Source of the DNA: Escherichia phage EcoM1
Sequence record: PQ818760.1
Length of the DNA stretch: 52,452 nt
Reading direction: 5' to 3' (one strand)
Shown here: positions 7,858-48,770 of the stretch, piece by piece
How the letters are laid out: each line of letters opens with the position of its first letter
Position numbering within the stretch: position 1 is the first letter of the stretch
Position numbers and translations under genes: made by a program
The notes under the pieces: generated by a model
Database searches by the model: none
What the model saw: the letters and a program-made list of their open reading frames with translations, nothing else
What the model was told of the DNA's origin: nothing

Positions 7858-7874
7858 CATATTCAACTAATGTA
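7858..7874 (-). promoter_or_regulatory. phage promoter-like element (variant copy)
   Basis: + strand catattcaactaatgta, a variant of the recurrent cacatccaactaatg element; ends 26 nt upstream of the ATG at 7832. Confidence 0.35.
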
Positions 7875-7884
7875 AAGGAAAGCT

Positions 7885-7898
7885 GGGGATTTCTCCCC
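7885..7898 (-). terminator. terminator-like hairpin after tape measure gene
   Basis: GGGGA-tttc-TCCCC stem-loop 7 nt after the TMP stop (7905-7907); on the minus strand it is followed by a T-rich tract. Confidence 0.4.
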
Positions 7899-7904
7899 AA
7901 CTCC

Positions 7905-10900
7905 TTATCTTCTTTGTTGCGCACCGTTGTTCATGTTCATCTGTTGAGTCACAGTCTGACCACCAGGAATTGCCACTGTAGCAGAAGCAGTCTGGTTGTT
8001 GACCTTAGCATCAATCTTAACATTAACAACAGTTTGGGTTTGACCGTATGACATTCCATTACGAGTAAACCCTGTAGCACCTTCTTCCAAAGACTGAGAA
8101 GACTTGGACCATTCACGGAATGCTTTGACGCGATTCTGTGCTTGCACGGGAACAGCAGTTAGCCAATCCAACCCATTCTTATCAACAGCTTTGTCAACAG
8201 TGCCAGGACCATCGGTGTAAGCAGCCATTGCCTTTTCGTGGTCGCCATAACGCTTGTACATTGCGTCATAATATTCACGACCAACTCGCGCATCATCTTC
8301 TGGAGTTCCATCAGACGGCTTGATTCCAAATCCTGGGTCACGGGCAGTCGAAGGAAGAATTTGCATTATTCCACGAGCACCAGTGCGACTTGTTACACGA
8401 GAACCATCTTTATTGTATTCACGACCACCGGATTCTTCCTGAGCGATAAAGTCATAAACACTTCCAGCAAACTCACGGGCCTGATTGTATCCAGTACGAG
8501 CACCGTCAAGTGCAGCACTTCCGGCTTCGAAGATTGGAGCACCATTAGATAGGACACTTTGTGGCACGTTGTAGCTAGGCAGCACGCGTGCGCGGCTCCC
8601 CTGCAACATTTCTGACTGAGCCATACCTTCGGCAAAGTCAGAGTTTCTACCCGCTTCTACCACCGAACCAGCTTGCTCATGGCTGTATTCCGTGCGGTCG
8701 TAGGCTCGCGCCATCCCATTCAGGCCAGCCATTTCGGCAGCACCTGCGATACGGGCCTGACTCCAGCCACGCTCCTTGCCCCTTTCCTGCATGATGCGAG
8801 CCAGGGCCACAGGGTCGCCGCCTGTCGCACGAATATCACCTATGGTGAGCAATCCCCTACTGCCGCGAACGATGTTCACAGCGGCGCTGGGGTCGCCGTT
8901 AAGCATGGTGTTGTAGGCACTATGTGTGGTTTGATTCAGACGTGCCGCTTGTTGTGAATTGAGTCCTAACATCTCCAAGCCTTGCGACATGGAAGAATAT
9001 TCATTAGGATTCATAACACCAGCATCAAGCGAGTTGCCGATAAAGTCATTCATGTATTCAGCAGCTTCATTGCCAATCTGAATAGCACCAATGCCTACAG
9101 CAGCCATACGTCCCGCAGGAGTTGCCATCAATGCTTGCATAACTCCGTTGGTTGCTGAACCAATACTGCCGCCAGCAATACCAGCAGCTAATGAACCACC
9201 CATGCGACCGTAGTCATCATAGTAGTTGCCACCACTTGTAAAGTTACCGCCACGACCACCGCCACCGCCAGAATATCCACCGCCATTGGCAGCATCAAAT
9301 CTTTCGCGGTCCCAACCCATTGAGTCGGCTTTGCCATTAAAGTCTGCGTCTGCACCAATACCCTTCTGCCTGTTTTCTTCCTGAGCAGCAAGGATACCTT
9401 TCTTAACAGACAATGCCATCGAGTCATTTCCAGTATCACCGTTTCCTGTGGTTGCTGGAAAGTTTTGCTCGTGCATTACAAAGTTTGGCTGGTAGTCAGA
9501 GTAAGATGCCGTTGGGTTGTACGAAGAGCGTGAACCAATGAATGGGTCTTCTGGAGTTCCAGCAACGGCAGAATAGCCACGAGTGGACCTTTGACGAATA
9601 TCTTTCCAGATTCCATCACCAGTCATTGCACTTCTTGCACCAGAAATCAGTTCTTCACGGTCTAGCCCAGCATTGTTTCTAACAAACTCTCGCCCAGCAT
9701 CAAGACGGCCAAGCACAGAATCAAGACGATTTCGGTTTCTCTCGTACCATCCTTCGTCCTTCTCAATCCATTGTGAACGTGTTTCGTCGTTGATGGTTTG
9801 TGAGAACAAAGCACGAGAACGGCCAGAAACGTGCATACCAAATTGAATTTGGTCCATGTAATCTGGATGGTCGCCTTTAAGAAGGTCGGCAAACTTACCA
9901 GCCCTTTGCGGATTCTTGTGCTCCCAAATGGCATCATCGCCAATAAGGCCATCAGGAGAATACATGAAGGCGGGATAGTTGTCATTTGTTATAGCGCCAG
10001 TTTGTTTGATATCGAATCCAAATTCCTTACCAACACGAGCGCGTGCTTCTTCTTCCGTCCTGTGACCATCAGCGAACATCTTTTTGGTGAAATCGCTGTG
10101 CTCTTTACTACGAGATAAACCAATCTTGTCAATCATTCCCGCCCAAGGTCGGGTATACGGGTTGTTTCCTAAGAAGGTTCCAACAGTTGAGCCAGTTATG
10201 TCATAATTTTTACGGAAGTCTAGCCACTCTTGGCTACCCTGTTCTAAGTCATGGAATCTGACGGGAGACTCGGAACGTCCTGTACCATAGTCGGATACAT
10301 CACGGAATCCAGCACTATCCATGTTTGCAATCGCAATTTCCTCACGACGCATTCTTGCAGAGTTCCAATTAGTGGCCTCTCCAAGTTGTGCTGTAAATTC
10401 TGTAGATGTTGATTGCGAATCTTTTTCGACTCGCTGTGATGCTCCCTTCATCTTTGGAATGCGAACAGGTTCGGCATCCATTTTGTCATAAGTGTTTTCG
10501 AGAATAGCTCGAACACTCGATGCAGAATAAGCTGGTTCATCTGCAAGTTCAGAACGAAGGTTTTCATACCCGCTTCTGGCTTCTTCCAAATCTGTATAGC
10601 GAGTTGCGCTATCCATAATCATGTCACGGTCAGATACTTCGTGACGAGTATTCATCATCCCTTTGGAGCCAGAATAAACTTTGGCAGCAGATTTAACAGC
10701 TTCACTAATGGAAGAATACAAAGCCTTGCTTGGTTCGCTCCAACCTGTGCCACCAGTTAATGATGCAGTGAGGGAGTATTCTGGATTTATGCCGGAACCA
10801 TAAGAACCAAGTGGGAGTCCAGATGCGTTAAGAGGTGCACGAGGATGTGCAATGCCAGAAACAATTGAAGGAGAACCAATCTGAGGAAGTGCATCCATGT

Positions 10901-11630
10901 AAGAAATATGTGGGGCCGATTTATTTCCTACATTAGAGGCCGAGGTATACCCAACTTCCTTAAAGGCTGTGGGTAACTCTTGTTCCAGACGTTTGGCAAC
11001 TCGACTAATGTCTCTTGCGTATTGTTCATGATTGCTGTATTGCTCACGGTCAACATACATGTGAGCCATGTAGTTGTATGAGTCGGCAATGTTTCCACGG
11101 TTGGTGGAGTATTCTGCCATAATATCACCAGCATAATGACCTGGGATTTCTGGCATAATATCTTGATGCCCTTGCAAAGTATCTCGCATGTAGGCATTAA
11201 GCATGTTGAAGCTACCTTGCGGTAAGTTCGGATTTGGCTTTGGCATGTGCATCCACACATCGTCTGTGTTGACACCAAGCCTTTCCATGTATGCGTGAAC
11301 AGCTTCTACATGGTGTGTTGGGCCATTCATTGCTGCATGAAATGCTTCTGTGTAGCCAGCACTTGAAAGCACTTGTGCAATGTGGGCAGCGTCTGAAATC
11401 ATGGAAGAGTCGCCCAAAGATTCAGTAATTAAACTGTCATCTTCAAACGACCCACCCATTAATTCTGCATTTGTATCCAGCCATCCCGAAGCAGCGCTCG
11501 CACTAAGTTGTTGAACCATGTGCGACTTCTTCATACCAGCATGGAAAGTCAGACCGCTTTGAGAGCCTAATGCAATTAACTCATTAACGCTCAACTTCAT
11601 TAAATCTTTTTGATTAGCCATTGTCTTCAT
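7905..11630 (-). CDS. tail tape measure protein with lytic transglycosylase (SLT) domain
   Basis: 1241 aa, largest ORF, downstream of tube and chaperone genes; contains GARGIMQILPSTA...YTDGPG transglycosylase-like segment and a Gly-rich region. Confidence 0.7.
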   Translation of the reverse strand: MKTMANQKDLMKLSVNELIALGSQSGLTFHAGMKKSHMVQQLSASAASGWLDTNAELMGGSFEDDSLITESLGDSSMISDAAHIAQVLSSAGYTEAFHAAMNGPTHHVEAVHAYMERLGVNTDDVWMHMPKPNPNLPQGSFNMLNAYMRDTLQGHQDIMPEIPGHYAGDIMAEYSTNRGNIADSYNYMAHMYVDREQYSNHEQYARDISRVAKRLEQELPTAFKEVGYTSASNVGNKSAPHISYMDALPQIGSPSIVSGIAHPRAPLNASGLPLGSYGSGINPEYSLTASLTGGTGWSEPSKALYSSISEAVKSAAKVYSGSKGMMNTRHEVSDRDMIMDSATRYTDLEEARSGYENLRSELADEPAYSASSVRAILENTYDKMDAEPVRIPKMKGASQRVEKDSQSTSTEFTAQLGEATNWNSARMRREEIAIANMDSAGFRDVSDYGTGRSESPVRFHDLEQGSQEWLDFRKNYDITGSTVGTFLGNNPYTRPWAGMIDKIGLSRSKEHSDFTKKMFADGHRTEEEARARVGKEFGFDIKQTGAITNDNYPAFMYSPDGLIGDDAIWEHKNPQRAGKFADLLKGDHPDYMDQIQFGMHVSGRSRALFSQTINDETRSQWIEKDEGWYERNRNRLDSVLGRLDAGREFVRNNAGLDREELISGARSAMTGDGIWKDIRQRSTRGYSAVAGTPEDPFIGSRSSYNPTASYSDYQPNFVMHEQNFPATTGNGDTGNDSMALSVKKGILAAQEENRQKGIGADADFNGKADSMGWDRERFDAANGGGYSGGGGGRGGNFTSGGNYYDDYGRMGGSLAAGIAGGSIGSATNGVMQALMATPAGRMAAVGIGAIQIGNEAAEYMNDFIGNSLDAGVMNPNEYSSMSQGLEMLGLNSQQAARLNQTTHSAYNTMLNGDPSAAVNIVRGSRGLLTIGDIRATGGDPVALARIMQERGKERGWSQARIAGAAEMAGLNGMARAYDRTEYSHEQAGSVVEAGRNSDFAEGMAQSEMLQGSRARVLPSYNVPQSVLSNGAPIFEAGSAALDGARTGYNQAREFAGSVYDFIAQEESGGREYNKDGSRVTSRTGARGIMQILPSTARDPGFGIKPSDGTPEDDARVGREYYDAMYKRYGDHEKAMAAYTDGPGTVDKAVDKNGLDWLTAVPVQAQNRVKAFREWSKSSQSLEEGATGFTRNGMSYGQTQTVVNVKIDAKVNNQTASATVAIPGGQTVTQQMNMNNGAQQRR

Positions 11631-11789
11631 CTACTGGTTCGAGTTTCTTACGCAAATCGAGAATGTCGTGGAATAGCAATAAGTCCATAATCGAATAGGT
11701 TCCATCTTGCAATTCATGTAACTTGCAGAGAGAACTGTCTTCGATTATAGGACGATGCAGAAAATATTTTATGTCGGGGAACAGGGATA

Positions 11790-12248: not shown

Positions 12249-12259
12249 ACTTACTCCAA

Positions 12260-12715: not shown

Positions 12716-12725
12716 TTATCGCACC

Positions 12726-20335: not shown

Positions 20336-22371
20336 GCGGAGTAGTTGGCACTTGGGCCTGAGAATTCGATTGCAACCATATCTGAAACGTTATCGACACA
20401 ATCGTCGTGTCCAGTACCACTACCCAAAGAAGTGAATCCAAGTATTTCACGTCTAACGTGGTCGATGTGTTCATGACCAGCAGGGAAGAATATTCTCTTT
20501 TGTGAGAAATATGGGATTGCGTTAAGGAATCGAGTTACCTTGTCATTACCATTAATCCCATCACGAGGCAATGGTAAAACTCGGACACTCCCATCTCTGA
20601 TAAATTGTTGGTTCAAGAATTGTCCGGCAGACTTGTCTTCCATGTACAGTGCACGAGGAATACAACCTACACACTTCAAGTCCAACTTGTTGCATTTGTT
20701 CCAGAAGTCGATGATAGCAGTCTTGAGTTCTGGAGTTTCAAACTTACCAAGCATAATATCTAAACAATAAACATCACGCTCTTTAGTCACGCCCCAATGC
20801 TTAAGGACCGAATAATCAGAATAGGACTTGGCAGTTGATGCCGTATCCGCTGTAATAAAGCTTCTGACTATGCGACTTCTGTCGAAAACGTCTGGTTCAT
20901 ACTCTTGCCACCAATCTTCTTTGATAAGGCCGTGGCCTTGTGCAGATGGGTCGCCAGCATACTGTGAATTGTATGTGTATGGGTTAGACTCTTTCATTGC
21001 CTCCAGAGATTCTAAGCTCTTACGTGAAGGCCATAATGCAGACTTCTCTTCCTTCCTGTTCAAATTATACAGAATGGGAATAGCATGAGTGTAGTTCTGC
21101 TTCTTGATTAACTTATCATACCATTCAGCACTTCCAACTCCCTTCTCAATAATCGCTGGGATATTGAGATAGTGGTATTTGTCAGAAGAGCCGCCACGGA
21201 GTATATAACCAACTAAATCCTGGTCGTGAACTCGCTGCATGATGATAACCATTGGTGTACGGGCACACTTAATTTGGTTTCCGTACGAATCAGTTATGCA
21301 ACCATCGTTGGCAAGACGTGACATGAAGGTGTTATCAAATCGGTCGTTGATTTCTGCTCGAACTGTGTCAGAGTAGGCATCTTTAGGTTTGATAACGTCA
21401 TCCACCACGAAACAACCGGAGTATTTTGCAACAAGAAGTCCAGCACCTTTACCAGTTAACTTACCGCCAGTTGGTACTGCGTGCATAACTCCAGCTTTGG
21501 TTGTACCCCAACGTTCAAGAGAACGTTTGTTAGGGTCGATTCTCACCTTCGGGAATATGCGTTGGAACAGTGGGTCCATCATTACAGCACGGATGTAACC
21601 ACTCGATTCAAGAACAACGTCTTCTGCATACGAGGTGATAATGTTATGACTCGATTCATTGTGGCAAAATGAATACAAGGGCAATGCAATACTCATGAGC
21701 TGAGTCTTAGAGTGTCGTGGTGGAATGGTCACTATTAAGCGGTCAATCTCACCGTCAACAACCTTCTGACCAACACTGAATATTACATCGTGAAAGTCTT
21801 GTGCTTGAAATGGAAATCCCATCTGAATATGGAACTGCCATTTACCAAAGGCTTCGAAACTTTTCATCAAGATTTTGCGAACACGTTCTGCAACCTTGGC
21901 AGGGATTACAGTTGGGTCCACGTTATGTGGGTCATGCAGAATCTTGTCTACAAGTTCATCGGTGTTATCATGCTCCGAGTTTGGCTCCTCTAATGTGGAA
22001 CCTGCAACACGGTCAGTAACACCTGCTTGAATACCTTTCTTCAACTCATCTGCATAGGCAGTCGAGTCTTTCTTGTCGCCAGAGCGAAGACGCTCAAGTT
22101 GTGCTCTGAAAACGGAACGCAATACAGCATCGTTTTCAAGACCCTGGCCTTCTAACTCTGCTTGAATTTGTTCTTCATAGCTGTCAACTATTGCAGTATT
22201 TTCTGAAATATATCGACGGAGCAATGGCAAAGATAGAATACAGAATCTTTCTCTTGAGACTTTTAATACGTCACCGTAGTGTTTGGCGAGATACGAGGCT
22301 ACTGTATCATTAAACTCCGGTCCGAGGTCATCAGTCTTTGACATTGATTCGTTCTCTTTGTTTTTAATCAC
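20326..22371 (-). CDS. terminase large subunit
   Basis: 681 aa with Walker-A-like IPPRHSKTQ, Walker-B CFVVDDV, and C-terminal nuclease-like GHDDCVDNVSDM; upstream of portal. Track start is GTG at 22371; first ATG at 22344. Confidence 0.8.
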   Translation of the reverse strand: MIKNKENESMSKTDDLGPEFNDTVASYLAKHYGDVLKVSRERFCILSLPLLRRYISENTAIVDSYEEQIQAELEGQGLENDAVLRSVFRAQLERLRSGDKKDSTAYADELKKGIQAGVTDRVAGSTLEEPNSEHDNTDELVDKILHDPHNVDPTVIPAKVAERVRKILMKSFEAFGKWQFHIQMGFPFQAQDFHDVIFSVGQKVVDGEIDRLIVTIPPRHSKTQLMSIALPLYSFCHNESSHNIITSYAEDVVLESSGYIRAVMMDPLFQRIFPKVRIDPNKRSLERWGTTKAGVMHAVPTGGKLTGKGAGLLVAKYSGCFVVDDVIKPKDAYSDTVRAEINDRFDNTFMSRLANDGCITDSYGNQIKCARTPMVIIMQRVHDQDLVGYILRGGSSDKYHYLNIPAIIEKGVGSAEWYDKLIKKQNYTHAIPILYNLNRKEEKSALWPSRKSLESLEAMKESNPYTYNSQYAGDPSAQGHGLIKEDWWQEYEPDVFDRSRIVRSFITADTASTAKSYSDYSVLKHWGVTKERDVYCLDIMLGKFETPELKTAIIDFWNKCNKLDLKCVGCIPRALYMEDKSAGQFLNQQFIRDGSVRVLPLPRDGINGNDKVTRFLNAIPYFSQKRIFFPAGHEHIDHVRREILGFTSLGSGTGHDDCVDNVSDMVAIEFSGPSANYSAWM

Positions 22372-22549
22372 AATCCACTAATGGCTGAGTTTGCACGGGA
22401 TTGATGCGAATGATGCTGCCTAAACCAGAATCGGCCTTTAAATACAGGCGGTTTAGTGGCATGTATGAATCACAGATAGGACATTGCTGCGTTATGAAAT
22501 CATCTTCTGCAATTTCATAATGGCAGTTAGGACATTGTATTGTGCGCAT
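22364..22549 (-). CDS. zinc-ribbon protein
   Basis: 61 aa with CPNC...17 aa...CPIC; overlaps the terminase start. Confidence 0.4.
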   Translation of the reverse strand: MRTIQCPNCHYEIAEDDFITQQCPICDSYMPLNRLYLKADSGLGSIIRINPVQTQPLVDCD

Positions 22550-22569
22550 AAGCGACTCCGAATAAGATA

Positions 22570-22587
22570 GGAGGCCAGATAGCCTCC
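22570..22587 (-). terminator. terminator-like hairpin
   Basis: GGAGGC-cagata-GCCTCC hairpin between the stop at 22605 and the start at 22549; followed on the gene strand by TATCTTATT. Confidence 0.4.
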
Positions 22588-22604
22588 CTAATTACGCGTG
22601 TCGC

Positions 22605-26442: not shown

Positions 26443-26458
26443 GGCTCCCGAAGGAGCC
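26443..26458 (-). terminator. intrinsic-terminator-like hairpin
   Basis: GGCTCC-cgaa-GGAGCC hairpin between the stop at 26469 and the exonuclease start, followed on the gene strand by TTTAATTTT. Confidence 0.5.
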
Positions 26459-26468: not shown

Positions 26469-27335
26469 TTAGAACGGCATACCCGTACCGCCAGCAGCAC
26501 CACCTTCTGCTTCACGCTGTGCTTTTGCAGCAGCCTGTGCTTCCAGTTCAGCTTTCATAGCTGCATCAACTTCTTCATCAGAAGCCTGATTCGGTACAGC
26601 ACCTTCATCGGCAGGTTTACCGCCTAACAGCGCAGACAGCTTAGTCTTGTAGAAATCAACACCGGAAGTAATACGGTTCTTGATTGCATACGGAGATTCG
26701 CCACCTGGCAGTTTGTTGAATACTTCTAAGTCTGGCTCAGACATGTCAAAGAAGACAGTTGGGTTAACCAGAGCTTTAGCTTCTTTCTTCTCTTTGGATT
26801 TCATCGGGGAGAAAGTAGCTACTTTGTTTGCAACCTGGCCAGCATTCTTACCTGACTGCTTGGTATACTGAACAATGCCAACAATCAGAGGTTCGCCCAA
26901 CCAATCCGGCAGGTTCTTGGCAGGATGGCCCTGAATACCTTGTTCCAGGTTAGGTTTAACTTCCAGTGCATCAATCGCCTTAGCGAATTTGTAGATGTGG
27001 GAGTTCTCACCCATGAAGCCGTCAGCATTATAGGTAAACTCAAAGTCAAACCAACGCGGCTTGTCTTCAAGATTCTTCGCCATCATGATGCCGTCATCTT
27101 CGTCTGGGTCTTGAACCATGACCATTTTACCTTCACTGTCAACTTCTTTCATGTACTCGTCGAGCAGTTCGAAAGTCACCAGAAGTTTCAGAGATGGAGT
27201 AGGATATTTAGCAGAACCAGGCTGTAAGCCCAGGTCGATAATACGGCAGACACGAGCAGGATAACCACCCGCTTCCAGTAATGGTGCAGCAGAAGGAGTC
27301 TTGTTCGAGGCCAGTGTAGGAGCAGCAAATGCCAT
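26469..27335 (-). CDS. putative ssDNA-binding/annealing protein
   Basis: 288 aa at the position of an SSB gene between DNA polymerase and exonuclease; acidic C-terminus ending ...GGTGMPF. Family not verifiable by eye. Confidence 0.3.
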   Translation of the reverse strand: MAFAAPTLASNKTPSAAPLLEAGGYPARVCRIIDLGLQPGSAKYPTPSLKLLVTFELLDEYMKEVDSEGKMVMVQDPDEDDGIMMAKNLEDKPRWFDFEFTYNADGFMGENSHIYKFAKAIDALEVKPNLEQGIQGHPAKNLPDWLGEPLIVGIVQYTKQSGKNAGQVANKVATFSPMKSKEKKEAKALVNPTVFFDMSEPDLEVFNKLPGGESPYAIKNRITSGVDFYKTKLSALLGGKPADEGAVPNQASDEEVDAAMKAELEAQAAAKAQREAEGGAAGGTGMPF

Positions 27336-27351
27336 TTTGAGTACCTTTAAA

Positions 27352-27597
27352 TTACAGTTGAGTGATAACTAGGGAGAAGTCCAGGTCGTTCATACAAGAG
27401 ATTAACTCTTGCTCATTGACGACAGGACCAGATAAAGTTTTAATGAATGCCTGATACATTGAATTGGTAGCATAATCACTTCCAAATAATGCTTCAACAT
27501 TCTCGGTAATTACAGACAGCACAGCTTCCCGTGCGTCTTCACCTTTCTTGACAAAATGGAAATGGTCCACTTTGTCGAATATAGATACAACAACCAT
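27352..27597 (-). CDS. hypothetical protein
   Basis: 81 aa coupled to the DNA polymerase stop. Confidence 0.35.
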   Translation of the reverse strand: MVVVSIFDKVDHFHFVKKGEDAREAVLSVITENVEALFGSDYATNSMYQAFIKTLSGPVVNEQELISCMNDLDFSLVITQL

Positions 27598-29510
27598 TAG
27601 TGAATCTCTGCGTAGTTATCGCCAAATTGTACATCACATGCACAATCGCGATTGAGTTTAAGTTCTTTGTTGGTTCGGCCCATTGCCTCATTAAGCAAGT
27701 CCGTCCACAAATCACGGAAACCTTTCTTAACTTGGAGAATCAATTCATCATGGAATTGCCCGGACAGAAGCGGGTCACAGCCCCAACGTTCATTACAAAT
27801 TGCAATGATGTTGTTACACCAAATATCAAACACATATGCACCAGTACCCTGACACAATGTTGAGAAGCGGTCTTTCTCTGTACGCAGCGAATACCAGAAT
27901 TTGTTTACTGGATTCTGTTGCCACATCTGACCATCAATTGTTACAACTTTGGTATTGGCTGCAATCTCTTTGATTGACCAGTTCAAGTCCCAATATGCTT
28001 TATGAAGTCGTGCAGCAGTAGTCTGGTCACAGCCAGCAGAACGAGCTACAGTTGGTACACCAGCGCCATACTGACAAGCATAGTTTGTGGTCTTAAACAT
28101 TGGACGTTGTTTACACTTCTTAATTCCGTCCTTGTGGTCCTGAGATTCTTGTTCTGTAATAAATCCACCAATTACGCCGATTGCAAGGTGAGCATCATAG
28201 TCTGGTGCCAACTGCTTCTTAACGTATTCAGGGTCATACATCCACTGGAAGTGGTGTTTACAACGGTCTTCCAGAGAACACAAGTCAGAGCCTAGCTGTT
28301 CGTAGTCTTCACGCCACGCTTCCAGCATTGAACGCAGTTCTTCACCGCCAAATACACGAATAGAAGGGAGGTTAACAAGTTCGCGATGTTTAAGGCGTAA
28401 AGTATTGGTAAGGCCACCACATCGTGCAGTAAGGAACCCATCTTCATCGACGTCGCGAAGGAAGCCATTAACAACAGACAGACGGTGTTTATACACGCCC
28501 ATCCCAATAAGATGTTGAATACCAGATTCGGGGTTTCTTTCCGCCAGCTTATGCAAGCTCGGACATATTTCAGGATTGCCATCTTCATCCTTCACAGTGA
28601 TTTGTGGAATCTGGCGAGTTTCACCTGTTTCCTTGTTACGGTCAAACTTAAAGGTTTCCGGTTCCCAGCCTAGGCTGAACAACCAATCTTTGATTTGAAC
28701 ATGTGAACCAGCATTAGGCTTCTTATAACCTTTAAGAACTTTGATAGCCAGGTCTGGGTCTTTCCAATCCAAACCGTTCGCATCACAAATAGCCTTCCAC
28801 TTAATTCCAGTGGCAGACAGTTGCCCGTTCATCTTGTGGCATTTAGCTGGACGGGTTTTGATAACATATTCCGGAACACGCGGCATTGATGCTTCCAATG
28901 CGTCCGTCTTCTCTTTAATCATTGGCTCCAGCTTGGCCTTAAATGCCAATGCCTTCTCAATGTTCAGCTTCCAGCGAGTACGTTGCTGAATAACTTGTTG
29001 ACGAGCTTTTGTCATCAGGTATTCAACGAAGCGTTTAACTTCGCTAGGAGATTTATAAATCTTCAAGAGTTGAATGTATTGCTGTTCCCACAGCTTCAAC
29101 TGAATCTTGCAGTCTTCCATCACACGATGGTTGTACTCTTCTTGAGTTTGATTTTCCCAATCTTCAATGACTGGTTTTGGCACACCAAACTCTTCACCAT
29201 AACCCTCTAAGCCGTGCTTAACACGACGAGGTTGCAGATACCAACTGATAAACAAGGTATCAATCAGAGTACATTTTGAAACGTCATAACCCAAGAACCT
29301 CAATGCTTCAAAGTCAAAGGTTGCGCCATTGTGCATGATTAGTGTTGGGCCTGTATCCAGAAATGCCTGGATAGATTTTCTGTCGGTCCACTCTATTACA
29401 GTTTCTTCACGAGTTAGAACATCAATATATCCGATGTTGTGAAGACGTGGTGCAGCTTGCTTGCGCATTTGCTCCAACAGGCCAGTTGTTTCAATGTCAC
29501 TGGCATACAT
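27597..29510 (-). CDS. DNA polymerase, family A (T7 gp5-like)
   Basis: N-terminal MYASDIETTGL exonuclease motif (T7 DNAP begins MIVSDIEAN), motif B RPMFKTTNYACQYGAG, motif C QFHDE. Start at ATG 29510; track extends to GTG 29531. Confidence 0.85.
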   Translation of the reverse strand: MYASDIETTGLLEQMRKQAAPRLHNIGYIDVLTREETVIEWTDRKSIQAFLDTGPTLIMHNGATFDFEALRFLGYDVSKCTLIDTLFISWYLQPRRVKHGLEGYGEEFGVPKPVIEDWENQTQEEYNHRVMEDCKIQLKLWEQQYIQLLKIYKSPSEVKRFVEYLMTKARQQVIQQRTRWKLNIEKALAFKAKLEPMIKEKTDALEASMPRVPEYVIKTRPAKCHKMNGQLSATGIKWKAICDANGLDWKDPDLAIKVLKGYKKPNAGSHVQIKDWLFSLGWEPETFKFDRNKETGETRQIPQITVKDEDGNPEICPSLHKLAERNPESGIQHLIGMGVYKHRLSVVNGFLRDVDEDGFLTARCGGLTNTLRLKHRELVNLPSIRVFGGEELRSMLEAWREDYEQLGSDLCSLEDRCKHHFQWMYDPEYVKKQLAPDYDAHLAIGVIGGFITEQESQDHKDGIKKCKQRPMFKTTNYACQYGAGVPTVARSAGCDQTTAARLHKAYWDLNWSIKEIAANTKVVTIDGQMWQQNPVNKFWYSLRTEKDRFSTLCQGTGAYVFDIWCNNIIAICNERWGCDPLLSGQFHDELILQVKKGFRDLWTDLLNEAMGRTNKELKLNRDCACDVQFGDNYAEIH

Positions 29511-33622: not shown

Positions 33623-33763
33623 TTAGATGGCACACGCACCGCTTGAGCAGTCATTATCGCCAGCACCAGGAACGATTGCTTCTTCGTCCTGCTTCTTCTT
33701 GAGTTCTTCAATTGCTTCTTCGGCAGCACCGAAGTCCAAATTGTCTAGTGCATCAATGTCCAT
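33623..33763 (-). CDS. small acidic protein (46 aa)
   Basis: ATG at 33761-33763 to TAA at 33623-33625, found by hand (below the track threshold); sits between the tRNA-like gene and the spanins. Confidence 0.2.
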   Translation of the reverse strand: MDIDALDNLDFGAAEEAIEELKKKQDEEAIVPGAGDNDCSSGACAI

Positions 33764-33789
33764 GAGGACTCCATGTTATTGTTGAAGTG

Positions 33790-33884
33790 GGTGGACGAGG
33801 TTGGATTCGAACCAACGACACATCTGTCGAACAGATTGCTCTACCTGACTAAGCTCTGGAGCAGACCTTCTGAGCTACTCGTCC
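33790..33884 (-). tRNA. tRNA-like gene, possibly tRNA-Leu(CAG), non-canonical D-arm
   Basis: Perfect 7-bp acceptor stem (GGACGAG/CTCGTCC), canonical T-arm GTTGG-TTCGAAT-CCAAC, discriminator A then CC; candidate anticodon loop GT-CAG-GT with a long variable hairpin. I could not fold a standard D-stem by hand. Confidence 0.45.
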
Positions 33885-34782
33885 GAATAAGGTGGGGTTT
33901 TGGTAACGCAGGTTTTCCCGAACTGCGAGGCTTGTAGAATCCGTGAGTCGCCTACTGTGTTTTGACATAACGTGGGATTGATGGTCCCGACTCACTTCAT
34001 CTCAGGTACGAGGCACTACTTTGCGAGTGCAAGCAGGTGTTGAACCCAAGTACCAACAGGCAACCTGATTTAATCTACCTTTGTAGATACCATCGGTTAT
34101 GAGCAGTTTATTTCCATGCTCAGGGCAACTCACTTTAGGGTGAATTAGGTTACGCAGTGCAGCTTCGAAGTCGCTGCCACAGGCTTGAGATTCCTGTGTG
34201 GAGGGAAATCCAGAGGAGCACTTCCCCAAGGAGTTACGTTTCAAATTGGCATAGCTTCTCACACTAAACCAATTGAAGACATTCCAGTGTGCTCGTCCGT
34301 CCTCTAGAAATATCCAACTGCATAATTAAGTTTGTACTCTGTCACATCCCCACGCGCACTGGAGGACTTAAGCCTGCTTTGCATCGCAGAATACAAATTA
34401 ATTATTGCTCCGATTTATTAATCACATCTCGAAGCCACAATGCGCCAAATTTGGTTACGTGGGATTGGAAGACCACGGAGAGGACTTAAATTTAATTAAG
34501 CCGCAACTCGCATTTCAGAATCATTTGCATTTATTTTAAATGAATAAAACAGTCGCAATAACTTCGGGCAGTTTAGGCCCGTCGTAAGACTCAGAAAACT
34601 ACTTCAATGAACACTCTTGTCTGGGCCACGAGATTGGGCATCGGCCTACCTCCCAACTCTAATCACAAGAATGCTCATTGAAGCCCACTCTTCCTTTCAG
34701 AATGGGTTCAAGGCAGCACCGGAAAACTTCCAGTGCATGCCAGATCGATTTAGCTTAGTCTCTCAAGTTTGCCATCGGCAAC

Positions 34783-35121
34783 TTAGAATACCGGAGCTTC
34801 TTCAACCGCAGCTTCGGCAGCTTCGGCAACACTTGCGTCAGCAACTTTAGCTTCTTTCGGAGTATCGAACTTAGTACGCTCAACTTCCGGCTCACCAGCT
34901 TCAACCCACGGCAGATAGAATGCCAGGAACTGCTCGATGGTGTTCTTCTGCATGGAGCGAGAACGGTCGATAGCACCAACGGTGTTCAGGTACGCTTCGG
35001 CAGCTTTCTCAATTTTAGCACCGTTTTCCAGTTTGAAGTCATGTGCATTACACTCTGCTTCGGTCAGGAACAGGGAACCATCGTTAGCTTCGTACTGAGT
35101 TACGGTTACAATCTTAGCCAT
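34783..35121 (-). CDS. acidic early protein
   Basis: 112 aa with strongly acidic Ala/Glu-rich C-terminus; ATG 80 nt downstream of a copy of the promoter-like element. Confidence 0.4.
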   Translation of the reverse strand: MAKIVTVTQYEANDGSLFLTEAECNAHDFKLENGAKIEKAAEAYLNTVGAIDRSRSMQKNTIEQFLAFYLPWVEAGEPEVERTKFDTPKEAKVADASVAEAAEAAVEEAPVF

Positions 35122-35200
35122 TTGTATATACCTTATATTGAATAGTTTTGCACGCCACGGTGACGTGACTTAGATAAAAATTAAAGAGCCTTTCTCTTTC

Positions 35201-35221
35201 CACATCCAACTAATGTTTCAG
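35201..35221 (-). promoter_or_regulatory. phage promoter-like element
   Basis: + strand cacatccaactaatgtttcag; gene-strand reading ctgaaACATTAGTTGGATGTG; 80 nt upstream of the ATG at 35121. Confidence 0.4.
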
Positions 35222-35245: not shown

Positions 35246-35920
35246 TCAATATCTATTGAATCGTTCTAGTGTTTTATTTACTAAATCCTTTGTCTCAGCG
35301 ACAGTGAGTTCAGTGATGATTGATTCGTCATAACCCTCAATCTGGATTGCTACAAAACGCCCAACTCCAGTTACAGTGAGTCGGTTTGTTCTGTCACGAA
35401 CAACTACACCAGCTTCTTGCGCGACTGCTCGCAACAATTTCCAGCGTAAAGTTCGATTTGGCACAGCAAAGCCTTTTGCCAAGAACAACTCTTTCATGAG
35501 TTCTCCAAGACAAACAGCTTCAATGTTTTGTCCTCTTCCAACTAATTCTTGCAACAGGCACAGTGTCAACATTTCTAAATTGTTGAAGTGTCCAGCGCGC
35601 TCCAAATTAAAGAACTCTGGAGGAACAGTTGAACGAGATTTAACAGCTTGCTTGTATGCACGTTCTTCTTCCTGTGCAGCAAGCATTAGCATCTCTGGCT
35701 TGATGTACTTCATAGCAGAGAAGCCAGCGCGTGTGGCTTTAATTATGCGACAAGCCTCTTTCATCTTGTAGCGTTGCCACTCACCGCGCTTCGATTCTGG
35801 ATTAAAATGGACCCACATAATGATAACATCTTCCTTGGCAAGATAGACGGCATCATTATCATTGAGCCATTGCTTACACGTTGATAGTGCAATCTCTTTG
35901 TCATCATCATGATAAGACAT
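35246..35920 (-). CDS. hypothetical early protein
   Basis: Start taken at ATG (MSYHDDD...) just past the upstream stop; track ORF extends to 35977. Confidence 0.35.
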   Translation of the reverse strand: MSYHDDDKEIALSTCKQWLNDNDAVYLAKEDVIIMWVHFNPESKRGEWQRYKMKEACRIIKATRAGFSAMKYIKPEMLMLAAQEEERAYKQAVKSRSTVPPEFFNLERAGHFNNLEMLTLCLLQELVGRGQNIEAVCLGELMKELFLAKGFAVPNRTLRWKLLRAVAQEAGVVVRDRTNRLTVTGVGRFVAIQIEGYDESIITELTVAETKDLVNKTLERFNRY

Positions 35921-35921: not shown

Positions 35922-36212
35922 TTAGTGGCCTTGTAGGATACGTTTGTTCGCAGTTTCTGCGTCGATTCCCAAATCAACTAATGTCACCAAGCACTGCGAA
36001 ATCCGCTCTTGCGCAGCTTTCTCCAGAATTTGGTATTTTTCGTTGTCAACGCCTAACACATTCTTGGCATGAATGAGTGTAGCCATCAGACCGTGACCCA
36101 AAGCAACAGCTTGCATTGCCTGGAGTTCAAAGTTAATTGTGATGCCAGCGAGTTCGTGCTCTTTCTGGATAATCTCAATCAACTCTTCTTTAGATTTGTC
36201 TTGTAAGTTCAA
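35922..36212 (-). CDS. hypothetical early protein
   Basis: Start taken as TTG overlapping the upstream stop with GGAG 8 nt upstream; track ORF extends to 36299. Confidence 0.3.
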   Translation of the reverse strand: MNLQDKSKEELIEIIQKEHELAGITINFELQAMQAVALGHGLMATLIHAKNVLGVDNEKYQILEKAAQERISQCLVTLVDLGIDAETANKRILQGH

Positions 36213-36699: not shown

Positions 36700-37422
36700 A
36701 GGAACTCTCCAATTTTCGATTCAATGTTTGTGACTTCTCTTCTCATCTTTTGGCCCAGGAACAGGCCACAGGGTAGCGCAGGAAGGCCGAAAATCGGGCC
36801 ACTGCCTACCGTTTGTGTCAATTCTGGATAACTGCATTGGTGAAGGGTTACTCCCGTTAGGGTGCGATACGCTAATCACATGAGTGTCGTCGCCTTGCGG
36901 CTCAGGCGTGTCACAGAGGCTTTGCAACCCTTCCCAATACATTCACCCAATCCACCTGCTTTGGCATAGCTGGTGGCGCGGTTTTGTGCGGATTATGCCA
37001 CTCTAAGCCCTGTTTGTCCGACTTCCTCAGAGCACCAGCGGCTTGTGGCACAAACCTATTTTCGAATGACTAACATAAGCATGAGGCATAACCCTCTAAT
37101 TATTCAGCCCTAACAGCTTGCTTATTTAGTTCCAATTCATCCCAATACATCGCCTATAACAAGTGAATAGCTTTTCTGCGAAGAAGTATTCCGGCCCTTT
37201 GGCCTATGTTAAAAGATAAATGTATATGATGGAAACATTCCATCGAAAATAACTTTGTAGAATGAGTCGAACATTCTCGCACGATGCGGCCGCAACGGTC
37301 TACCGAGTTACAAAGTTATTATCTGATGTTGTTTCTTCAATTCCAACTAATGTTTCAGAATTATTCCAATATTCCAAACAAAAAGAATAATAAGAATAAA
37401 TTAAAATAAATGAAGAAAGTGC

Positions 37423-37452
37423 TTGACACTCATTTGGCGATAAGTGTATAAT
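37423..37452 (+). promoter_or_regulatory. consensus sigma70-type promoter, plus strand (antisense to genes)
   Basis: TTGACA (37423-37428), 18-bp spacer, TATAAT (37447-37452); preceded by a 45-nt A/T-rich tract (37376-37420) resembling an UP element. Coordinates anchored on the ORF ending at 37488. Confidence 0.5.
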
Positions 37453-37458: not shown

Positions 37459-37482
37459 CTTCCCTAAGTGGTCAGAATCAAA

Positions 37483-37499
37483 TCCCACTAATGTTTCAG
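37483..37499 (-). promoter_or_regulatory. phage promoter-like element (variant)
   Basis: + strand tcccactaatgtttcag, 30 nt right of the sigma70 -10 box. Confidence 0.35.
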
Positions 37500-41466: not shown

Positions 41467-41539
41467 GATTAAGATTCTCTTAAGTTAATTACAGTTTAAG
41501 TTTCAGCGACATTGCTAACCACGGAATAGCTTTGTCTCT

Positions 41540-41557
41540 CACATCCAACTAATGTTA
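41540..41557 (-). promoter_or_regulatory. phage promoter-like element
   Basis: + strand cacatccaactaatgtta, 74 nt upstream of the ATG at 41466. Confidence 0.4.
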
Positions 41558-44399: not shown

Positions 44400-44408
44400 T
44401 TTATACTC

Positions 44409-44839: not shown

Positions 44840-44841
44840 GA

Positions 44842-45078: not shown

Positions 45079-45119
45079 TTCTGCTCTCCAAATTTGGAGG
45101 GTTTACTCCCCCCCCCGCA

Positions 45120-45338
45120 TTAAACTTCAATTGGCTCTTGAACTAAATCAGAGGCTGAGATTTCTTTAAACTCCTCCTCGGTAAAAGTTCTCTCATTGTC
45201 ATTTAATAAAACACCAATGTTAGAATCACCAACGAATACTGCATTTACATTAACATCATCTTCCAAAACTTTTTGCAGGTGTTCTCCACCACGCGTAAAG
45301 AAGATTGCACCATCTTCCAAATCTTTAAAACGAGTCAT
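45120..45338 (-). CDS. hypothetical early protein (first gene of the early array)
   Basis: 72 aa acidic protein; AGGAG 8 nt upstream of the ATG; preceded by a long inverted repeat. Confidence 0.4.
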   Translation of the reverse strand: MTRFKDLEDGAIFFTRGGEHLQKVLEDDVNVNAVFVGDSNIGVLLNDNERTFTEEEFKEISASDLVQEPIEV

Positions 45339-45360
45339 TTTATTCTCCTAAGTTAAAAGA

Positions 45361-45424
45361 ACTCCCTACAGAACGATTGTGGAGGTCTTGTCTTACCTCA
45401 ATCCACCTTAAAGTTGTAGGGAGT
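45361..45424 (-). promoter_or_regulatory. structured leader (10-bp inverted repeat with nested stem)
   Basis: ACTCCCTACA (45361-45370) pairs with TGTAGGGAGT (45415-45424); nested GAGGT/ACCTC stem inside; 23 nt upstream of the first early gene. Confidence 0.35.
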
Positions 45425-45531
45425 ATGTGACACAGCAAGTGCCGAAAAACTACAATGATTAGCTTGGAGACATAATCTCTCTAAAATCTGTCACACAATT
45501 TCAGCAGAATTTACAGAGATTTGGTCTTATT

Positions 45532-45548
45532 CACATGCAACTAATGAT
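45532..45548 (-). promoter_or_regulatory. phage promoter-like element (GCATGTG variant)
   Basis: + strand cacatgcaactaatgat; same as the recurrent element with c-to-g at one position. Confidence 0.3.
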
Positions 45549-46446
45549 AAATGGACATGCTTAATTGCAACTAACTCATCTGCCAAATAGACGAATTTTG
45601 TCACAATTAAACATGCATCATTAATTACAGGTTTGCTCCTATCTTGGAATGTATTTGGCACATCAAGAAGTGGCGCAATAGGTACGGAAAACCGACCATT
45701 TACAGCATAATAAAACTAATTAAATAAAGGGTTTTACCCCAATATTGTCACAATATTTACATGCGATGATAAAGCCTTCGCTTGGCTGGAAGCCAGTATT
45801 CATGCGGGTTGCAAGAATATTGGGTCAATACTGATACAGCTATTACATGCGAAATTGGCACAAATGTTGTTACAAAATTAACATGCCAGATTGGTAGACG
45901 ATTGTATCTTCGAGGTGATTAGTCCTCTAACAATTCTGCCACATTCCAACATGCCAATTTGTAGCAATATTTACATGCCATACTGCGACAATATTGTCAC
46001 AATATTTGTTGCTCAAAATCGGGGCGGGCTACGGGATTAGTTTCGATGCTTTGTCCGACTTCTTCTCTTCTTTCGAATTCTGATTGAAAGAAAGAAGCAT
46101 GTCCAAAAGTTCCAATATTACCAAAGTTATCTCCCGGCTTGTGGGTGGGCCTTTATAATAGGAGATGGAGCAATATTGAAACAAGTGGACATGCTGATTT
46201 GCTGACTTTCTTGTAACTTAATCAAGATGGCTAACACGATGTTCTGTTGTTAGTTCAGCACCGGAAGTAACAGTTTCGAATGATAATCCTACTTCACACA
46301 TGGTTGCTGGAACTTTGTCCGGCCAAAGACAGGGAGTTCAATGATTGCCACATCATTACAACACTGTATGTTTAGTTGACATGCTGAAATGTTTCTAGAA
46401 TGATTTCAACATGACATGCGGAATACTTCTCCGTATTCTGTTACTT

Positions 46447-46464
46447 CACATCCAACTAATGTCG
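46447..46464 (-). promoter_or_regulatory. phage promoter-like element
   Basis: + strand cacatccaactaatgtcg; coordinates anchored on the plus ORF starting at 46411. Confidence 0.35.
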
Positions 46465-46512
46465 AATATCGAGACAATATTACATGCAGCAATATTGTCT
46501 GAATATTGGGAA

Positions 46513-46680
46513 TCAGTTGAGCGTAGGCTTAACAACTTCATACTGCTTATCACCATCAGTGATTTCACAGTCTACATAGATATTCTCTTCACGAGCTGCA
46601 AACTTACGTGCTTCCTCTAAAGTCTCAAACTTCTCACAAACTGTTTTGCCGTAGTATGTAACGAGGTTAACTGCAAACAT
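46513..46680 (-). CDS. small protein (55 aa)
   Basis: Found by hand: GGAG 7 nt upstream of ATG at 46680, TGA at 46513-46515; a variant promoter-like element ends 29 nt upstream. Confidence 0.3.
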   Translation of the reverse strand: MFAVNLVTYYGKTVCEKFETLEEARKFAAREENIYVDCEITDGDKQYEVVKPTLN

Positions 46681-46708
46681 ATTATGCTCCAAATTGGTTT
46701 ATTAGATT

Positions 46709-46725
46709 CACATGCAACTAATGCC
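46709..46725 (-). promoter_or_regulatory. phage promoter-like element (GCATGTG variant)
   Basis: + strand cacatgcaactaatgcc, immediately after the polymerase stop and 29 nt upstream of the 55-aa ORF. Confidence 0.3.
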
Positions 46726-46743
46726 ATCCTTGGCACATAGTTG

Positions 46744-48684
46744 TTACTGACAGAAGTAGTAAGCGTGTTCGCTCATCAGCAACTCTTCTGTAACAATGTT
46801 CTCATGATACATCTGAATGCCACCAAGTTGCTTAGACAGATTCTCGAATTGATTGTTGGTTACAAAGATTTCAACATATGCTGCACGAATAACTTCCATC
46901 ATACGTGGAGCATCTGCCAGACAGCAACGGAAACAATCATGGATTGAAGTAAAGCCACGAAGACCAGCCTCTTTAGCTTTAACTGCAACAGTACGAGCAA
47001 CCAATGCGTCAATACCTTGAATGTAGTTAACAACGAAAGTACGCTTGAATTCTTCTTTAGTTGGATTGGATTCACGAATGGTCCAAGGCTTATTCTCCTG
47101 AATCTGGCCAAAGATAACACGAGTTTGAGAGTCAACACGAATGCTGAATGCCTCACAGATTTCACGAGATGGGAAGCAAGGCTTCATTACAACCTGACCA
47201 TCAGTGTGACGATATGTGATGTACTCTTTACCAAGTTCAACACAACGGTTGTATGCAGCATCAGCAGCCTTCTCAATGAACATGTTAATCTTAGCACCCA
47301 ATGCGTTATGGATTGCTTCTACACACAGTTCAGCAAATGCCTCAGCTTTCTCCATAGGAATCTGGAGCGCTTCTGTCATGTAGCTAATGAAGTCAGATGA
47401 ACCAGTTAATGCAGCTTTACCACCACCATATTGAATAGCCATGTACGGAGTTTTGATAAACTTACGACCAGCTTTCGGATTCAAGAATTCATCCATGATT
47501 TCAGGAGATGGTTTCATTGAAGAACGGTCTAATAACTTCAACAGTTCACGAAGAGATAACTGGTATGGGTCAGATGCTTTAGTCTCAGAATCAACCAGAC
47601 CTGTTGCACGAGCCATTTCCATGTTACCAGCAATGAATGCCAGATATTGAGTACCAGAACATTTAGCATCTAGGCCAAAGCCTACACGAGAATCGCACTC
47701 ACCTGTAGTCTCAAACTTGAACCAATCCAGAGCCAGACGAACATAAGTGAATGGCTTGGAAGGACGTTCAGCTTTAGGCATGTTCATCATGCGAGCAAGT
47801 GAACCAGCTGGATTCTGAGCAACATAAGTTAAACGCTTAGCAGTACACCATTCACCACCCGAAATATCTTCCAGCTCTGCCATGAACATGTTGTATGCAA
47901 TGGTAGTAGAACCATCTTCGTTAAACTTCTTAACGATGTTCTCAACATTGTGAGAATACAAGCAACGAGCAAAGTCAGATGATTGTGGGTTAGGACCAGC
48001 ACATGCTACATGATACAGACGACCACGGTTATCAGCAAAGTAGTCAGAGTACAGCTTATCCTGATTCATCATTGCTACAGCATTGTTCCAAACATGGAGT
48101 TCAGTCTGGATTGCTTCTGGCATCTGCAAGCCACCATAAGTACGTTGCTCAATCATGGACTGGATGATGCGAACCATCTCAGTCTCCACATGGTACTCAG
48201 TATCTTGCAGGAATTCGATTGCAGCTTTCAGAGTTTTGGATGGCTTAACTTTGCCACCTTTAACGAAAGGCTTGCGACGAGATTCAGATGTAACACGCTC
48301 AGTGAATGGCACTGCTGTGTCTTTGGTTGTAACCAGCTCAACCCATGTGTCAGTCTGTTGGAATGACTTGTCTTCGTTCATGGTGATGAAGCCAAAGTGC
48401 TTAGCCAGACCAATGAGGTTGATAGCTGGGTCAACATAGTGCATTGCTTTCAAATCGTTGTTATAACGGTTGGCATCAGCAATAGAAGCAGAAGCCAGCT
48501 CAACCATCGCGATGGCAGGAACAACGTCATCACGAGTGAAAGACGTCATCATCTTGAAGATGGCTAAGGCAGCAATAGCACAAGTCTGAGGCTGCATATA
48601 GTTCTGTTTCTCTTTGGCACGGTATACCAGAGCAGTGATAGCAGGAACAACGGATTTGATAGTTTGAGTAGTGATAGTAGTCAT
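46744..48684 (-). CDS. single-subunit DNA-dependent RNA polymerase (T7-type)
   Basis: 646 aa with the three catalytic motifs of T7-class polymerases: LDAKCSGTQYLAFIAG (T7 DGSCSGIQHF, motif A), KTPYMAIQYGGGK (T7 KRSVMTLAYGSK, O-helix K/Y), TSIHDCFRCC (T7 LIHDSFGT, motif C). Shorter than T7 RNAP (883 aa). ATG start with GGAG 9 nt upstream. Confidence 0.85.
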   Translation of the reverse strand: MTTITTQTIKSVVPAITALVYRAKEKQNYMQPQTCAIAALAIFKMMTSFTRDDVVPAIAMVELASASIADANRYNNDLKAMHYVDPAINLIGLAKHFGFITMNEDKSFQQTDTWVELVTTKDTAVPFTERVTSESRRKPFVKGGKVKPSKTLKAAIEFLQDTEYHVETEMVRIIQSMIEQRTYGGLQMPEAIQTELHVWNNAVAMMNQDKLYSDYFADNRGRLYHVACAGPNPQSSDFARCLYSHNVENIVKKFNEDGSTTIAYNMFMAELEDISGGEWCTAKRLTYVAQNPAGSLARMMNMPKAERPSKPFTYVRLALDWFKFETTGECDSRVGFGLDAKCSGTQYLAFIAGNMEMARATGLVDSETKASDPYQLSLRELLKLLDRSSMKPSPEIMDEFLNPKAGRKFIKTPYMAIQYGGGKAALTGSSDFISYMTEALQIPMEKAEAFAELCVEAIHNALGAKINMFIEKAADAAYNRCVELGKEYITYRHTDGQVVMKPCFPSREICEAFSIRVDSQTRVIFGQIQENKPWTIRESNPTKEEFKRTFVVNYIQGIDALVARTVAVKAKEAGLRGFTSIHDCFRCCLADAPRMMEVIRAAYVEIFVTNNQFENLSKQLGGIQMYHENIVTEELLMSEHAYYFCQ

Positions 48685-48752
48685 TTGTAAGTCTCCAAGA
48701 TTGTGTATGATTTAACTGAAACGGATTATAATAGCGTAGCCATTACACAATT

Positions 48753-48770
48753 CACTTCCAACTAATATCA
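48753..48770 (-). promoter_or_regulatory. phage promoter-like element upstream of the polymerase gene
   Basis: + strand cacttccaactaatatca, 69 nt upstream of the polymerase ATG; a TATAAT hexamer lies between it and the gene. Confidence 0.35.

Follow-up and report, generated by a model that had tools for sequence, protein, structure and literature searches.

Escherichia phage EcoM1 (sequence record PQ818760.1) belongs to the genus Carltongylesvirus (family Chaseviridae), and the 52,452-nucleotide stretch considered here, referred to below as the window, is its complete genome. A short element recurring at nine intergenic sites in the window is probably the promoter recognized by the single-subunit RNA polymerase that the phage itself encodes (46744-48684, minus strand), a reading based on sequence comparisons and on a structural model of the enzyme. 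The motif and its interpretation as a promoter are already known as a prediction: they have been in GenBank since 2008 for the related phage phiEcoM-GJ1 (GJ1 below), the record of which (EF460875) carries nine features described as 'putative phage promoter' that correspond to this motif and agree with it in relative position and orientation, with the consensus aACATTAGTTGGATGTGAA. The phages ST32, TH53, GJ1 and their relatives are 90-95% identical to the window (megablast with 15 kb of the window), the value for ST32 being about 95%. GJ1 was reportedly described by Jamalludeen et al. in Appl Environ Microbiol 74:516 in 2008. According to a 2021 review, Chaseviridae polymerases use promoters that are alike in sequence and arrangement (PMC8472413); in the ICTV's profile of the family, the promoters of Chaseviridae are still called unidentified. 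The relatives compared were, with the identity of their polymerase to that of EcoM1 in brackets, 4HA13 (Sabourvirus, 76%), PM1 (Suwonvirus, 71%), pEa_SNUABM_27 (Loessnervirus, 70%; pEa27 below), Myduc (Myducvirus, 66%) and Vibrio phage VPs20 (Nefertitivirinae, 36%), together with further contigs from a protein search, the polymerases of which are 55 (L007), 52 (L008), 43 (L009), and 41 and 40% (L010 and L011) identical to that of the window.

The long open reading frames (ORFs) of the window lie without exception on the minus strand. A search of both strands of the whole window for ACATTAGTTGGATGTG, with up to three mismatches and 100 shuffled windows as a control, yielded 10 matches against 0.78 expected, a number attained by none of the shuffled windows. 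Every one of these matches is on the minus (gene) strand and nine of the 10 are intergenic (P = 4e-8, for a coding fraction of 88% taken from the GJ1 annotation). A preliminary description, made by eye, had proposed nine intergenic copies in the same orientation and had called for an exhaustive search of both strands, in which equal frequencies in coding DNA and on the two strands would have counted against the proposal; the distribution found is the opposite. The same motif is the top recurrent 16-mer family of the genome in a de novo 16-mer scan, and a position-weight matrix separates its occurrences into tiers, with the nine intergenic copies at 22-30 bits, an in-gene copy at 27477 at 19.6 bits and weak candidates at 35967, 35531 (both within coding sequence) and 22367 (ahead of the terminase gene) at 14-15 bits. 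The repeated element is 16-18 bp long and asymmetric, without internal complementarity, and the next start codon lies at a variable distance (26-400 nt) downstream. Among 2.9 million viral contigs, its exact 17-mer was found in only 16 stretches, almost all of these in contigs of 50-56 kb, and appears to be essentially confined to Chaseviridae; chance alone would presumably give about seven matches in this collection, a rough figure for a collection size that we assume. It is scarcely conceivable that the element is a repeat with no regulatory role, such as a remnant of recombination or of a mobile element, or a product of chance or codon bias. A looser form (TTAGTTG-N4-T-R) does occur inside genes, on the coding strand, and the in-gene sites at 27477, 35531 and 35967 may merely reflect coding sequence, but the excess and the intergenic placement of the matches argue against this explanation, as does the syntenic intergenic conservation of the element in five genera in which the flanks have diverged.

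The individual copies are all on the minus strand, and are given here with the predicted start G, which in every 16-nt core has the lowest window coordinate, a caret marking the start junction; promoter numbers are those of the putative promoters annotated in GJ1. The copy at 48751-48770 (TGATATTAGTTGGAAGT^GAA; score 27.1) has 48753 as its start G, 69 nt ahead of the ATG (48684) of the RNA polymerase gene; the identical sequence is present in GJ1 at 569-588, without annotation there, and 4HA13, PM1, Myduc and L007 have syntenic counterparts ahead of the polymerase gene. Another copy, at 46707-46726 (TGGCATTAGTTGCATGT^GAA; start G 46709; score 28.0), is located 19 nt past the stop codon of the polymerase gene, and an ORF of 55 amino acids (aa; ATG 46680) begins 29 nt downstream; this copy has syntenic counterparts in PM1 (2299), pEa27 (2280) and Myduc (2205), and a degenerate ortholog in GJ1 (score 13.0 at 2637). 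Promoter 1 corresponds to 46445-46464 (CGACATTAGTTGGATGT^GAAGTAACAG; start G 46447; score 30.0), at the start of an ORF-poor stretch of about 0.9 kb, and the initial transcribed sequence of this copy, GAAGTAACA, is kept in 4HA13, PM1 and pEa27. Promoter 2 is found at 45530-45549 (TATCATTAGTTGCATGT^GAATAAG; start G 45532; score 28.1), 194 nt ahead of the first ATG (45338) of a cluster of small genes, and promoter 3 at 41538-41557 (TAACATTAGTTGGATGT^GAG; start G 41540; score 29.9), 74 nt upstream of the ATG (41466) of the gene for a single-stranded-DNA-binding (SSB) protein. Promoters 4 and 5 form a tandem pair, the first at 37477-37496 (AAACATTAGTGGGATTT^GAT; core 37479-37494; score 24.7) and the second, after an AT-rich stretch, at 37336-37355 (AAACATTAGTTGGAATT^GAAGAAAC; core 37338-37353, with two mismatches; score 28.0). 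Promoter 7 is at 35199-35218 (AAACATTAGTTGGATGT^GGA; start G 35201; score 29.2), 80 nt upstream of an ATG at 35121. Promoter 9, at 7856-7875 (TTACATTAGTTGAATAT^GTA; start G 7858; score 22.4), is 26 nt upstream of the baseplate-hub ATG (7832) and is directly preceded on its 5' side by a GC-rich terminator-like hairpin with an 11-pair stem and a T-run (7879-7904, minus strand).

The lower tiers are less convincing. A degenerate copy at 27475-27494 (AAGCATTATTTGGAAGT^GAT; three mismatches, with TTAG changed to TTAT; score 19.6) lies inside an 81-aa ORF, and its functional role is doubtful. The idea that it might be the ortholog of GJ1 promoter 8 was rejected: the orthologous site has been lost from the window via a 21-nt deletion, which falls exactly on the promoter-8 copy of GJ1 and 4HA13, and the degenerate copy sits about 110 nt further upstream than the deleted site. 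The small gene that follows the DNA polymerase gene here (27320-27610, minus strand) is highly variable among close relatives. The weak copy at 35531-35550 (AAGAATTAGTTGGAAGAGGA; score 15.0), the ortholog of GJ1 promoter 6, is inside coding sequence, and coding constraint could therefore account for the similar sequences found in 4HA13, PM1, pEa27 and Myduc. A weak candidate at 22367-22386 (AGCCATTAGTGGATTGT^GAT; score 13.8), about 25 nt upstream of a conserved terminase ATG, is present in GJ1 and has related sequences in 4HA13 and Myduc, but is absent from PM1 and pEa27.

Most of the positions listed in the preliminary description proved to be exact (7858, 35201, 41540, 45532, 46447, 46709 and 48753, with 0-2 mismatches), as did the five start-codon distances that it gave (26, 80, 74, 29 and 69 nt), each of which reaches an ATG. 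One further position, 37483, was 4 nt away from the true core (37479-37494), and a supposed copy at 37441 was rejected, with mismatches at 12 of 16 positions and, for the best match nearby, nine mismatches. This false copy is accounted for by a perfect sigma-70 consensus promoter at 37423-37452 on the plus strand (TTGACA, 18 nt, TATAAT; 12/12), the -10 hexamer of which occupies the position in question. The real copy at 37338-37353 had been overlooked and replaces it, so the count of nine intergenic copies is still right; in the late region, where the description had allowed for missed copies, the matrix scan gave 7858 as the only strong copy. The sigma-70 site is antisense to every gene, and lies between copies 37479 and 37338, adjoining a very AT-rich stretch, in a 620-bp gap without long ORFs; GJ1 and 4HA13 retain its hexamers at the same distance of 18 nt, with a different spacer sequence.

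The motif is in excess on the gene strand of 4HA13, PM1, pEa27 and Myduc, at syntenic sites, and the block is kept ahead of the SSB, P7 and hub genes in Carltongylesvirus, Sabourvirus, Suwonvirus, Loessnervirus and Myducvirus, while its flanks diverge. At the SSB gene (alignment A1), the block is conserved between diverged flanks in five of six phages, the Myduc segment having begun just past that phage's own copy (Myduc 9792), and at the 35201 site (alignment A6) six phages of five genera share the block as well as the ribosome-binding site and the ATG, again with divergent flanks. Ahead of the hub gene (alignment A2), the hairpin differs in sequence, with its pairing preserved by compensatory changes, and is followed by the motif in all six phages, the order being terminator hairpin, T-run, motif, ribosome-binding site and ATG. 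The motif is the sole conserved element between the terminator and the ribosome-binding site, and a promoter is what a position between a terminator and the next gene calls for. The same site bears on the possibility that the element acts in RNA, as a processing or cleavage site or as a leader signal of long polycistronic transcripts. Such a signal would be compatible with the presence of all copies on the transcribed strand, within 400 nt upstream of start codons, and with the overlap between one Myduc copy and a ribosome-binding site. It is nevertheless very unlikely, because the 7858 copy, directly past a conserved terminator hairpin, would be missing from terminated upstream transcripts, because there is no match to an Rfam family anywhere in the window and no internal complementarity in the motif, and because the fixed T^G junction, the purines after it and the A/T-rich positions -4 to -1 suit an initiation site.

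The more distant genomes indicate how the motif changes. In L007, L008 and L009, it is present but shifted in all copies together, and such a joint change points to a phage-encoded reader. In a common register, the consensus is ACATTAGTTGGATGT^GAA in the window and GJ1, ..TTGAgtGT^GAAGAA in Myduc, ngTTAGTTGG..T^GAA in L007 (where CA at -14/-13 is lost), GCATTAGTAGGcTTT^GGA in L008 (with TTAGTAGG in six of six intergenic gene-strand copies) and CATTAgTTGa..AT^GGAGAATAA in L009, in which position -9 is degenerate and the start region T^GGAGAATAA is new and conserved. The motif is absent from VPs20 (one match against three expected), and no such motif was found in L010 and L011. Candidates for a replacement promoter motif in these three genomes were not convincing and amounted to a TATACAG cluster ahead of the polymerase gene, so the co-variation argument rests on the loss and shift of the motif. 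Across nine genomes, T(-1) and G(+1) are near-invariant, positions -4 to -1 are A/T-rich and purines follow the start, and it is from these features that we infer the final G in the 16-nt core to be the start site. L008 itself (4981-5283 and 8200-8417; GCA_001412515.3, Candidatus Symbiopectobacterium) is a Chaseviridae-like element in a bacterial assembly, with three to four tandem promoter variants (GCATTAGTAGG..), about 75-85 bp apart, flanking the polymerase gene on both sides, one further copy on the opposite strand and a transposase gene nearby.

Signals for the host RNA polymerase do not accompany the element. Column-wise information content over 45 nt on each side of the motif revealed neither -35/-10 hexamers at a fixed distance nor a second conserved block, and nowhere in the genome is there an enrichment of sigma-70-like sites. 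A sigma-70 promoter, and an activator box combined with a -10 hexamer (T4 MotA type), were rejected on the grounds that fixed-distance hexamers and a second block are lacking. A broader alternative is that the element is the site of another DNA-binding protein, a phage regulator or an Enterobacterales host factor, which would tune the host RNA polymerase or organize replication. In favour of such a protein, eight of the nine strong copies cluster in the third of the genome that holds the early and middle genes, the tandem pair flanks the AT-rich stretch with the conserved antisense sigma-70 promoter, GCATGT, the 3' half of the motif, is found again in an array adjoining palindromic operator-like sites (see below) and the hosts of the motif-bearing phages are all Enterobacterales. 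This alternative is unlikely, however, given that the copies are unlike the T4 MotA box with its core promoter in having no -10/-35 at a fixed distance, that sigma-70-like sites show no enrichment and that the motif lacks the symmetry of typical dimer operators. The joint change of the copies in diverged lineages also argues for a phage-encoded reader, the exact 17-mer is essentially limited to one phage family, and the place of the motif, immediately after a terminator and ahead of a ribosome-binding site, demands a promoter. The host factor that the preliminary description had named as an alternative is thus disfavoured by the missing hexamers, the joint change and the near-confinement of the 17-mer, and its reading of the copies as promoters for the phage polymerase is supported by the computational evidence.

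The presumed reader of the motif is a 646-aa protein (46744-48684, minus strand) with a match to Pfam RNA_pol (PF00940, E = 5.9e-18) and 92-99% identity to annotated Carltongylesvirus RNA polymerases, a single-subunit RNA polymerase being a characteristic gene of Chaseviridae. Its AlphaFold model (58 homologs) has a mean predicted local distance difference test score (pLDDT) of 91, and a Foldseek search with this model gave T7 RNA polymerase complexes as the best PDB matches (E = 1.7e-19, template-modelling (TM) score 0.6, about 15% identity), followed by mitochondrial RNA polymerases. The model thus assigns the protein, with high confidence, the T7 RNA polymerase fold. A plain sequence search against the PDB gave no match, so the kinship with T7 RNA polymerase is visible only via Pfam and fold comparison. 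The landmarks of the enzyme (invariant D339 and H582-D583, and a DxRGRxY motif at D218-Y224) have T7 counterparts that we take to lie about 200 residues further from the N-terminus, which suggests that the N-terminal promoter-binding region is much reduced in the phage protein and fits a promoter conservation that starts only at about -14 or -15. A beta-hairpin with FSIRVDSQTRVIFGQ (residues ~505-537) occupies the position of the T7 specificity loop in the model. In the clades sharing the motif it is near-invariant (with one variable residue, Q/T/A); L007, L008 and L009 have altered versions of it, and the clades without the motif an unrelated sequence, a pattern consistent with co-evolution of the hairpin and the motif.

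If the element is indeed a promoter of this enzyme, host RNA polymerase would first transcribe the polymerase gene from the AT-rich, sigma-70-like DNA upstream. The 646-aa enzyme would then bind the ~16-bp duplex CATTAGTTGGATGT, set at -14 to -1, where its specificity-loop hairpin probably reads the invariant TTAG (-12 to -9), melt the A/T-rich positions -4 to -1, start at the conserved G (the lowest coordinate of the 16-nt core) and transcribe the blocks of early and middle genes, proceeding along the minus strand. Positive feedback might come from the copy ahead of the polymerase gene itself, and the 7858 copy behind the hairpin at 7879-7904 could allow transcription to restart for the baseplate and tail-fibre genes.

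The region in which this sequence of events would begin is 700 bp of non-coding, partly very AT-rich DNA upstream of the polymerase gene (48685-49384), with a sigma-70-like site at 49020-48991 (10/12) and a perfect TATAAT 23 nt downstream of copy 48753, and is a likely entry region for the host polymerase. This region should also hold the left physical end of the genome, judging by its synteny with 4HA13 and Myduc.

Several observations weigh against the promoter reading. Only one of the nine strong copies is located within the ~27 kb of packaging and structural genes, and these late genes would be served by the strong 7858 and the weak 22367 copies alone. T7 has several strong promoters ahead of its late genes, and with so few late copies the expression of late genes in EcoM1 would need read-through or an unrecognised class of promoter; neither the de novo 16-mer scan nor a repeat search of the genome revealed a separate promoter motif for the late genes. 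The element itself bears no real resemblance to the T7, T3 and SP6 consensus. In Myduc, the hub-gene copy overlaps the annotated ribosome-binding site and would leave almost no leader. Positions -6 to -1 of the motif (GCATGT) are repeated 13-15 times in a conserved array of their own, so that part of the motif could be recognised by another factor, and the link between loop and motif is qualitative only, because the whole protein diverges in parallel. In addition, a literature search on members of Chaseviridae yielded no transcript 5' end, run-off or binding assay. Terminator-like GC-rich hairpins with T-runs are also present on the minus strand at 26443-26458, between replication genes, and at 22569-22588, ahead of the terminase region, the former corresponding to an annotated terminator of 4HA13; no motif copy follows these hairpins, and the genes downstream would depend on read-through.

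The array in which this half-motif recurs occupies the ORF-poor DNA after the polymerase gene (45339-46743, minus strand), with 14 sense copies of GCATG(T) against 1.3 expected and one antisense copy, the consensus of the array element being roughly (TGTGACA)nnATTnGCATGTnAATATTG. Its first and last elements in the window are the promoter copies 46709 and 45532. Corresponding arrays are present in GJ1 (2602-4045), 4HA13 (2364-3837), PM1 (2151-3371), pEa27 (2178-3263), Myduc (2150-3965), L007 (11918-13368) and L009 (4651-5987), such that an array of 8-15 copies is found in every motif-bearing genome but L008, where GCATG is not clearly enriched (six against 3.6 expected); the array is absent in L010, L011 and VPs20. 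Neighbouring elements are spaced by 22-25, 33-37, 41, 55-59 or 67-68 nt, in a similar order across genera, and helical phasing of the whole array did not reach significance (p = 0.05-0.5). In 4HA13 and Myduc, the terminal repeats that PhageTerm predicts end within the array. A rather unlikely proposal is that the 646-aa polymerase may read a ~15-bp promoter mainly via its specificity-loop hairpin, as a minimal orthogonal pair, and that the array may, by analogy with the pause signal at the T7 concatemer junction, consist of polymerase pause or binding sites coupling transcription to replication or to concatemer processing. Close to the array is a palindrome, AATATTGT-G/C-ACAATATT, with about nine sites (19 strand matches with up to three mismatches, against 0.86 expected) at 45594-46507 and 48948-49267, nearly all in non-coding DNA flanking the polymerase gene, as is also the case in GJ1 and L007; from its sequence, this set looks like operators for a dimeric DNA-binding protein.

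Elsewhere in the window, 33759-33908 is 88% identical to a stretch annotated as an unusual 95-nt tRNA-Arg in GJ1 and ST32. ARAGORN found no tRNA in the window, and Rfam none at gathering score; for the GJ1 stretch annotated as tRNA-Arg, ARAGORN calls tRNA-Leu(cag).

As a discovery, the motif carries little weight, given that it and its reading are already in GenBank for a phage with a 92% identical polymerase. The value of the analysis lies in nine precise predicted starts, a register, the likely specificity bases (TTAG at -12 to -9) and a set of naturally occurring variants of the promoter, matched with diverged polymerases. Should the prediction hold, a T7-type polymerase of 646 aa and its ~16-bp promoter would make a compact orthogonal tool for transcription, and a comparison case for promoter recognition without most of the T7 N-terminal domain.

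The closest known system is GJ1, the promoters of which are themselves predictions only. The window copies conform to the GJ1 consensus (a)ACATTAGTTGGATGTGA(a) on the gene strand, differing by 0-2 bases from their GJ1 counterparts, and seven of them (46447, 45532, 41540, 37479, 37338, 35201 and 7858, for promoters 1, 2, 3, 4, 5, 7 and 9) are identical or near-identical orthologs, at syntenic sites after the polymerase gene, at the SSB gene, in the tandem pair after an antirestriction gene, and at the P7 and baseplate hub genes. The two phages differ in the 46709 copy, which is strong in the window but degenerate in GJ1, in promoter 8, the ortholog of which is absent from the window, and in the annotation of the copy ahead of the polymerase gene, which both phages have but which is not annotated in GJ1. 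T4 middle promoters offer a looser parallel, as short conserved boxes ahead of phage genes expressed after the earliest phase, but a promoter of the MotA type depends on a -10 hexamer set at a constant distance past the box, and there is none here.

With respect to the T7 group (T7, T3, SP6 and K11), taking the T3 and SP6 promoter sequences in the standard form found in papers, the motif does not match the group consensus (e.g. ...CACTATAG/CACTAAAG, with a GGGAGA or GAAGAG start). The K11 promoter has ATTAG at -16 to -12. The likeness to T3/K11-type promoters seen in the preliminary description comes down to this one pentamer, which, counted from the conserved T^G junction, is at -13 to -9 here and thus in another register, and it was rejected as evidence of kinship. 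The conserved part is also shorter than in T7 (about -14 to +3, versus -17 to +6), the polymerase is smaller (646 aa versus 883 aa, with ~15% identity), there are few copies in the late region and one copy stands ahead of the polymerase gene itself. The likeness is one of architecture: in both cases, a single conserved element of ~16-23 bp lies ahead of gene blocks in the orientation of the genes, an A/T-rich segment precedes a G start (a predicted one in EcoM1) followed by purines, promoters (putative ones in EcoM1) come after terminators, and a polymerase with the T7 fold is encoded in the same genome. The layout of copies 37338 and 37479 around AT-rich DNA also recalls the primary replication origin of T7, with its two phage promoters and AT-rich DNA.

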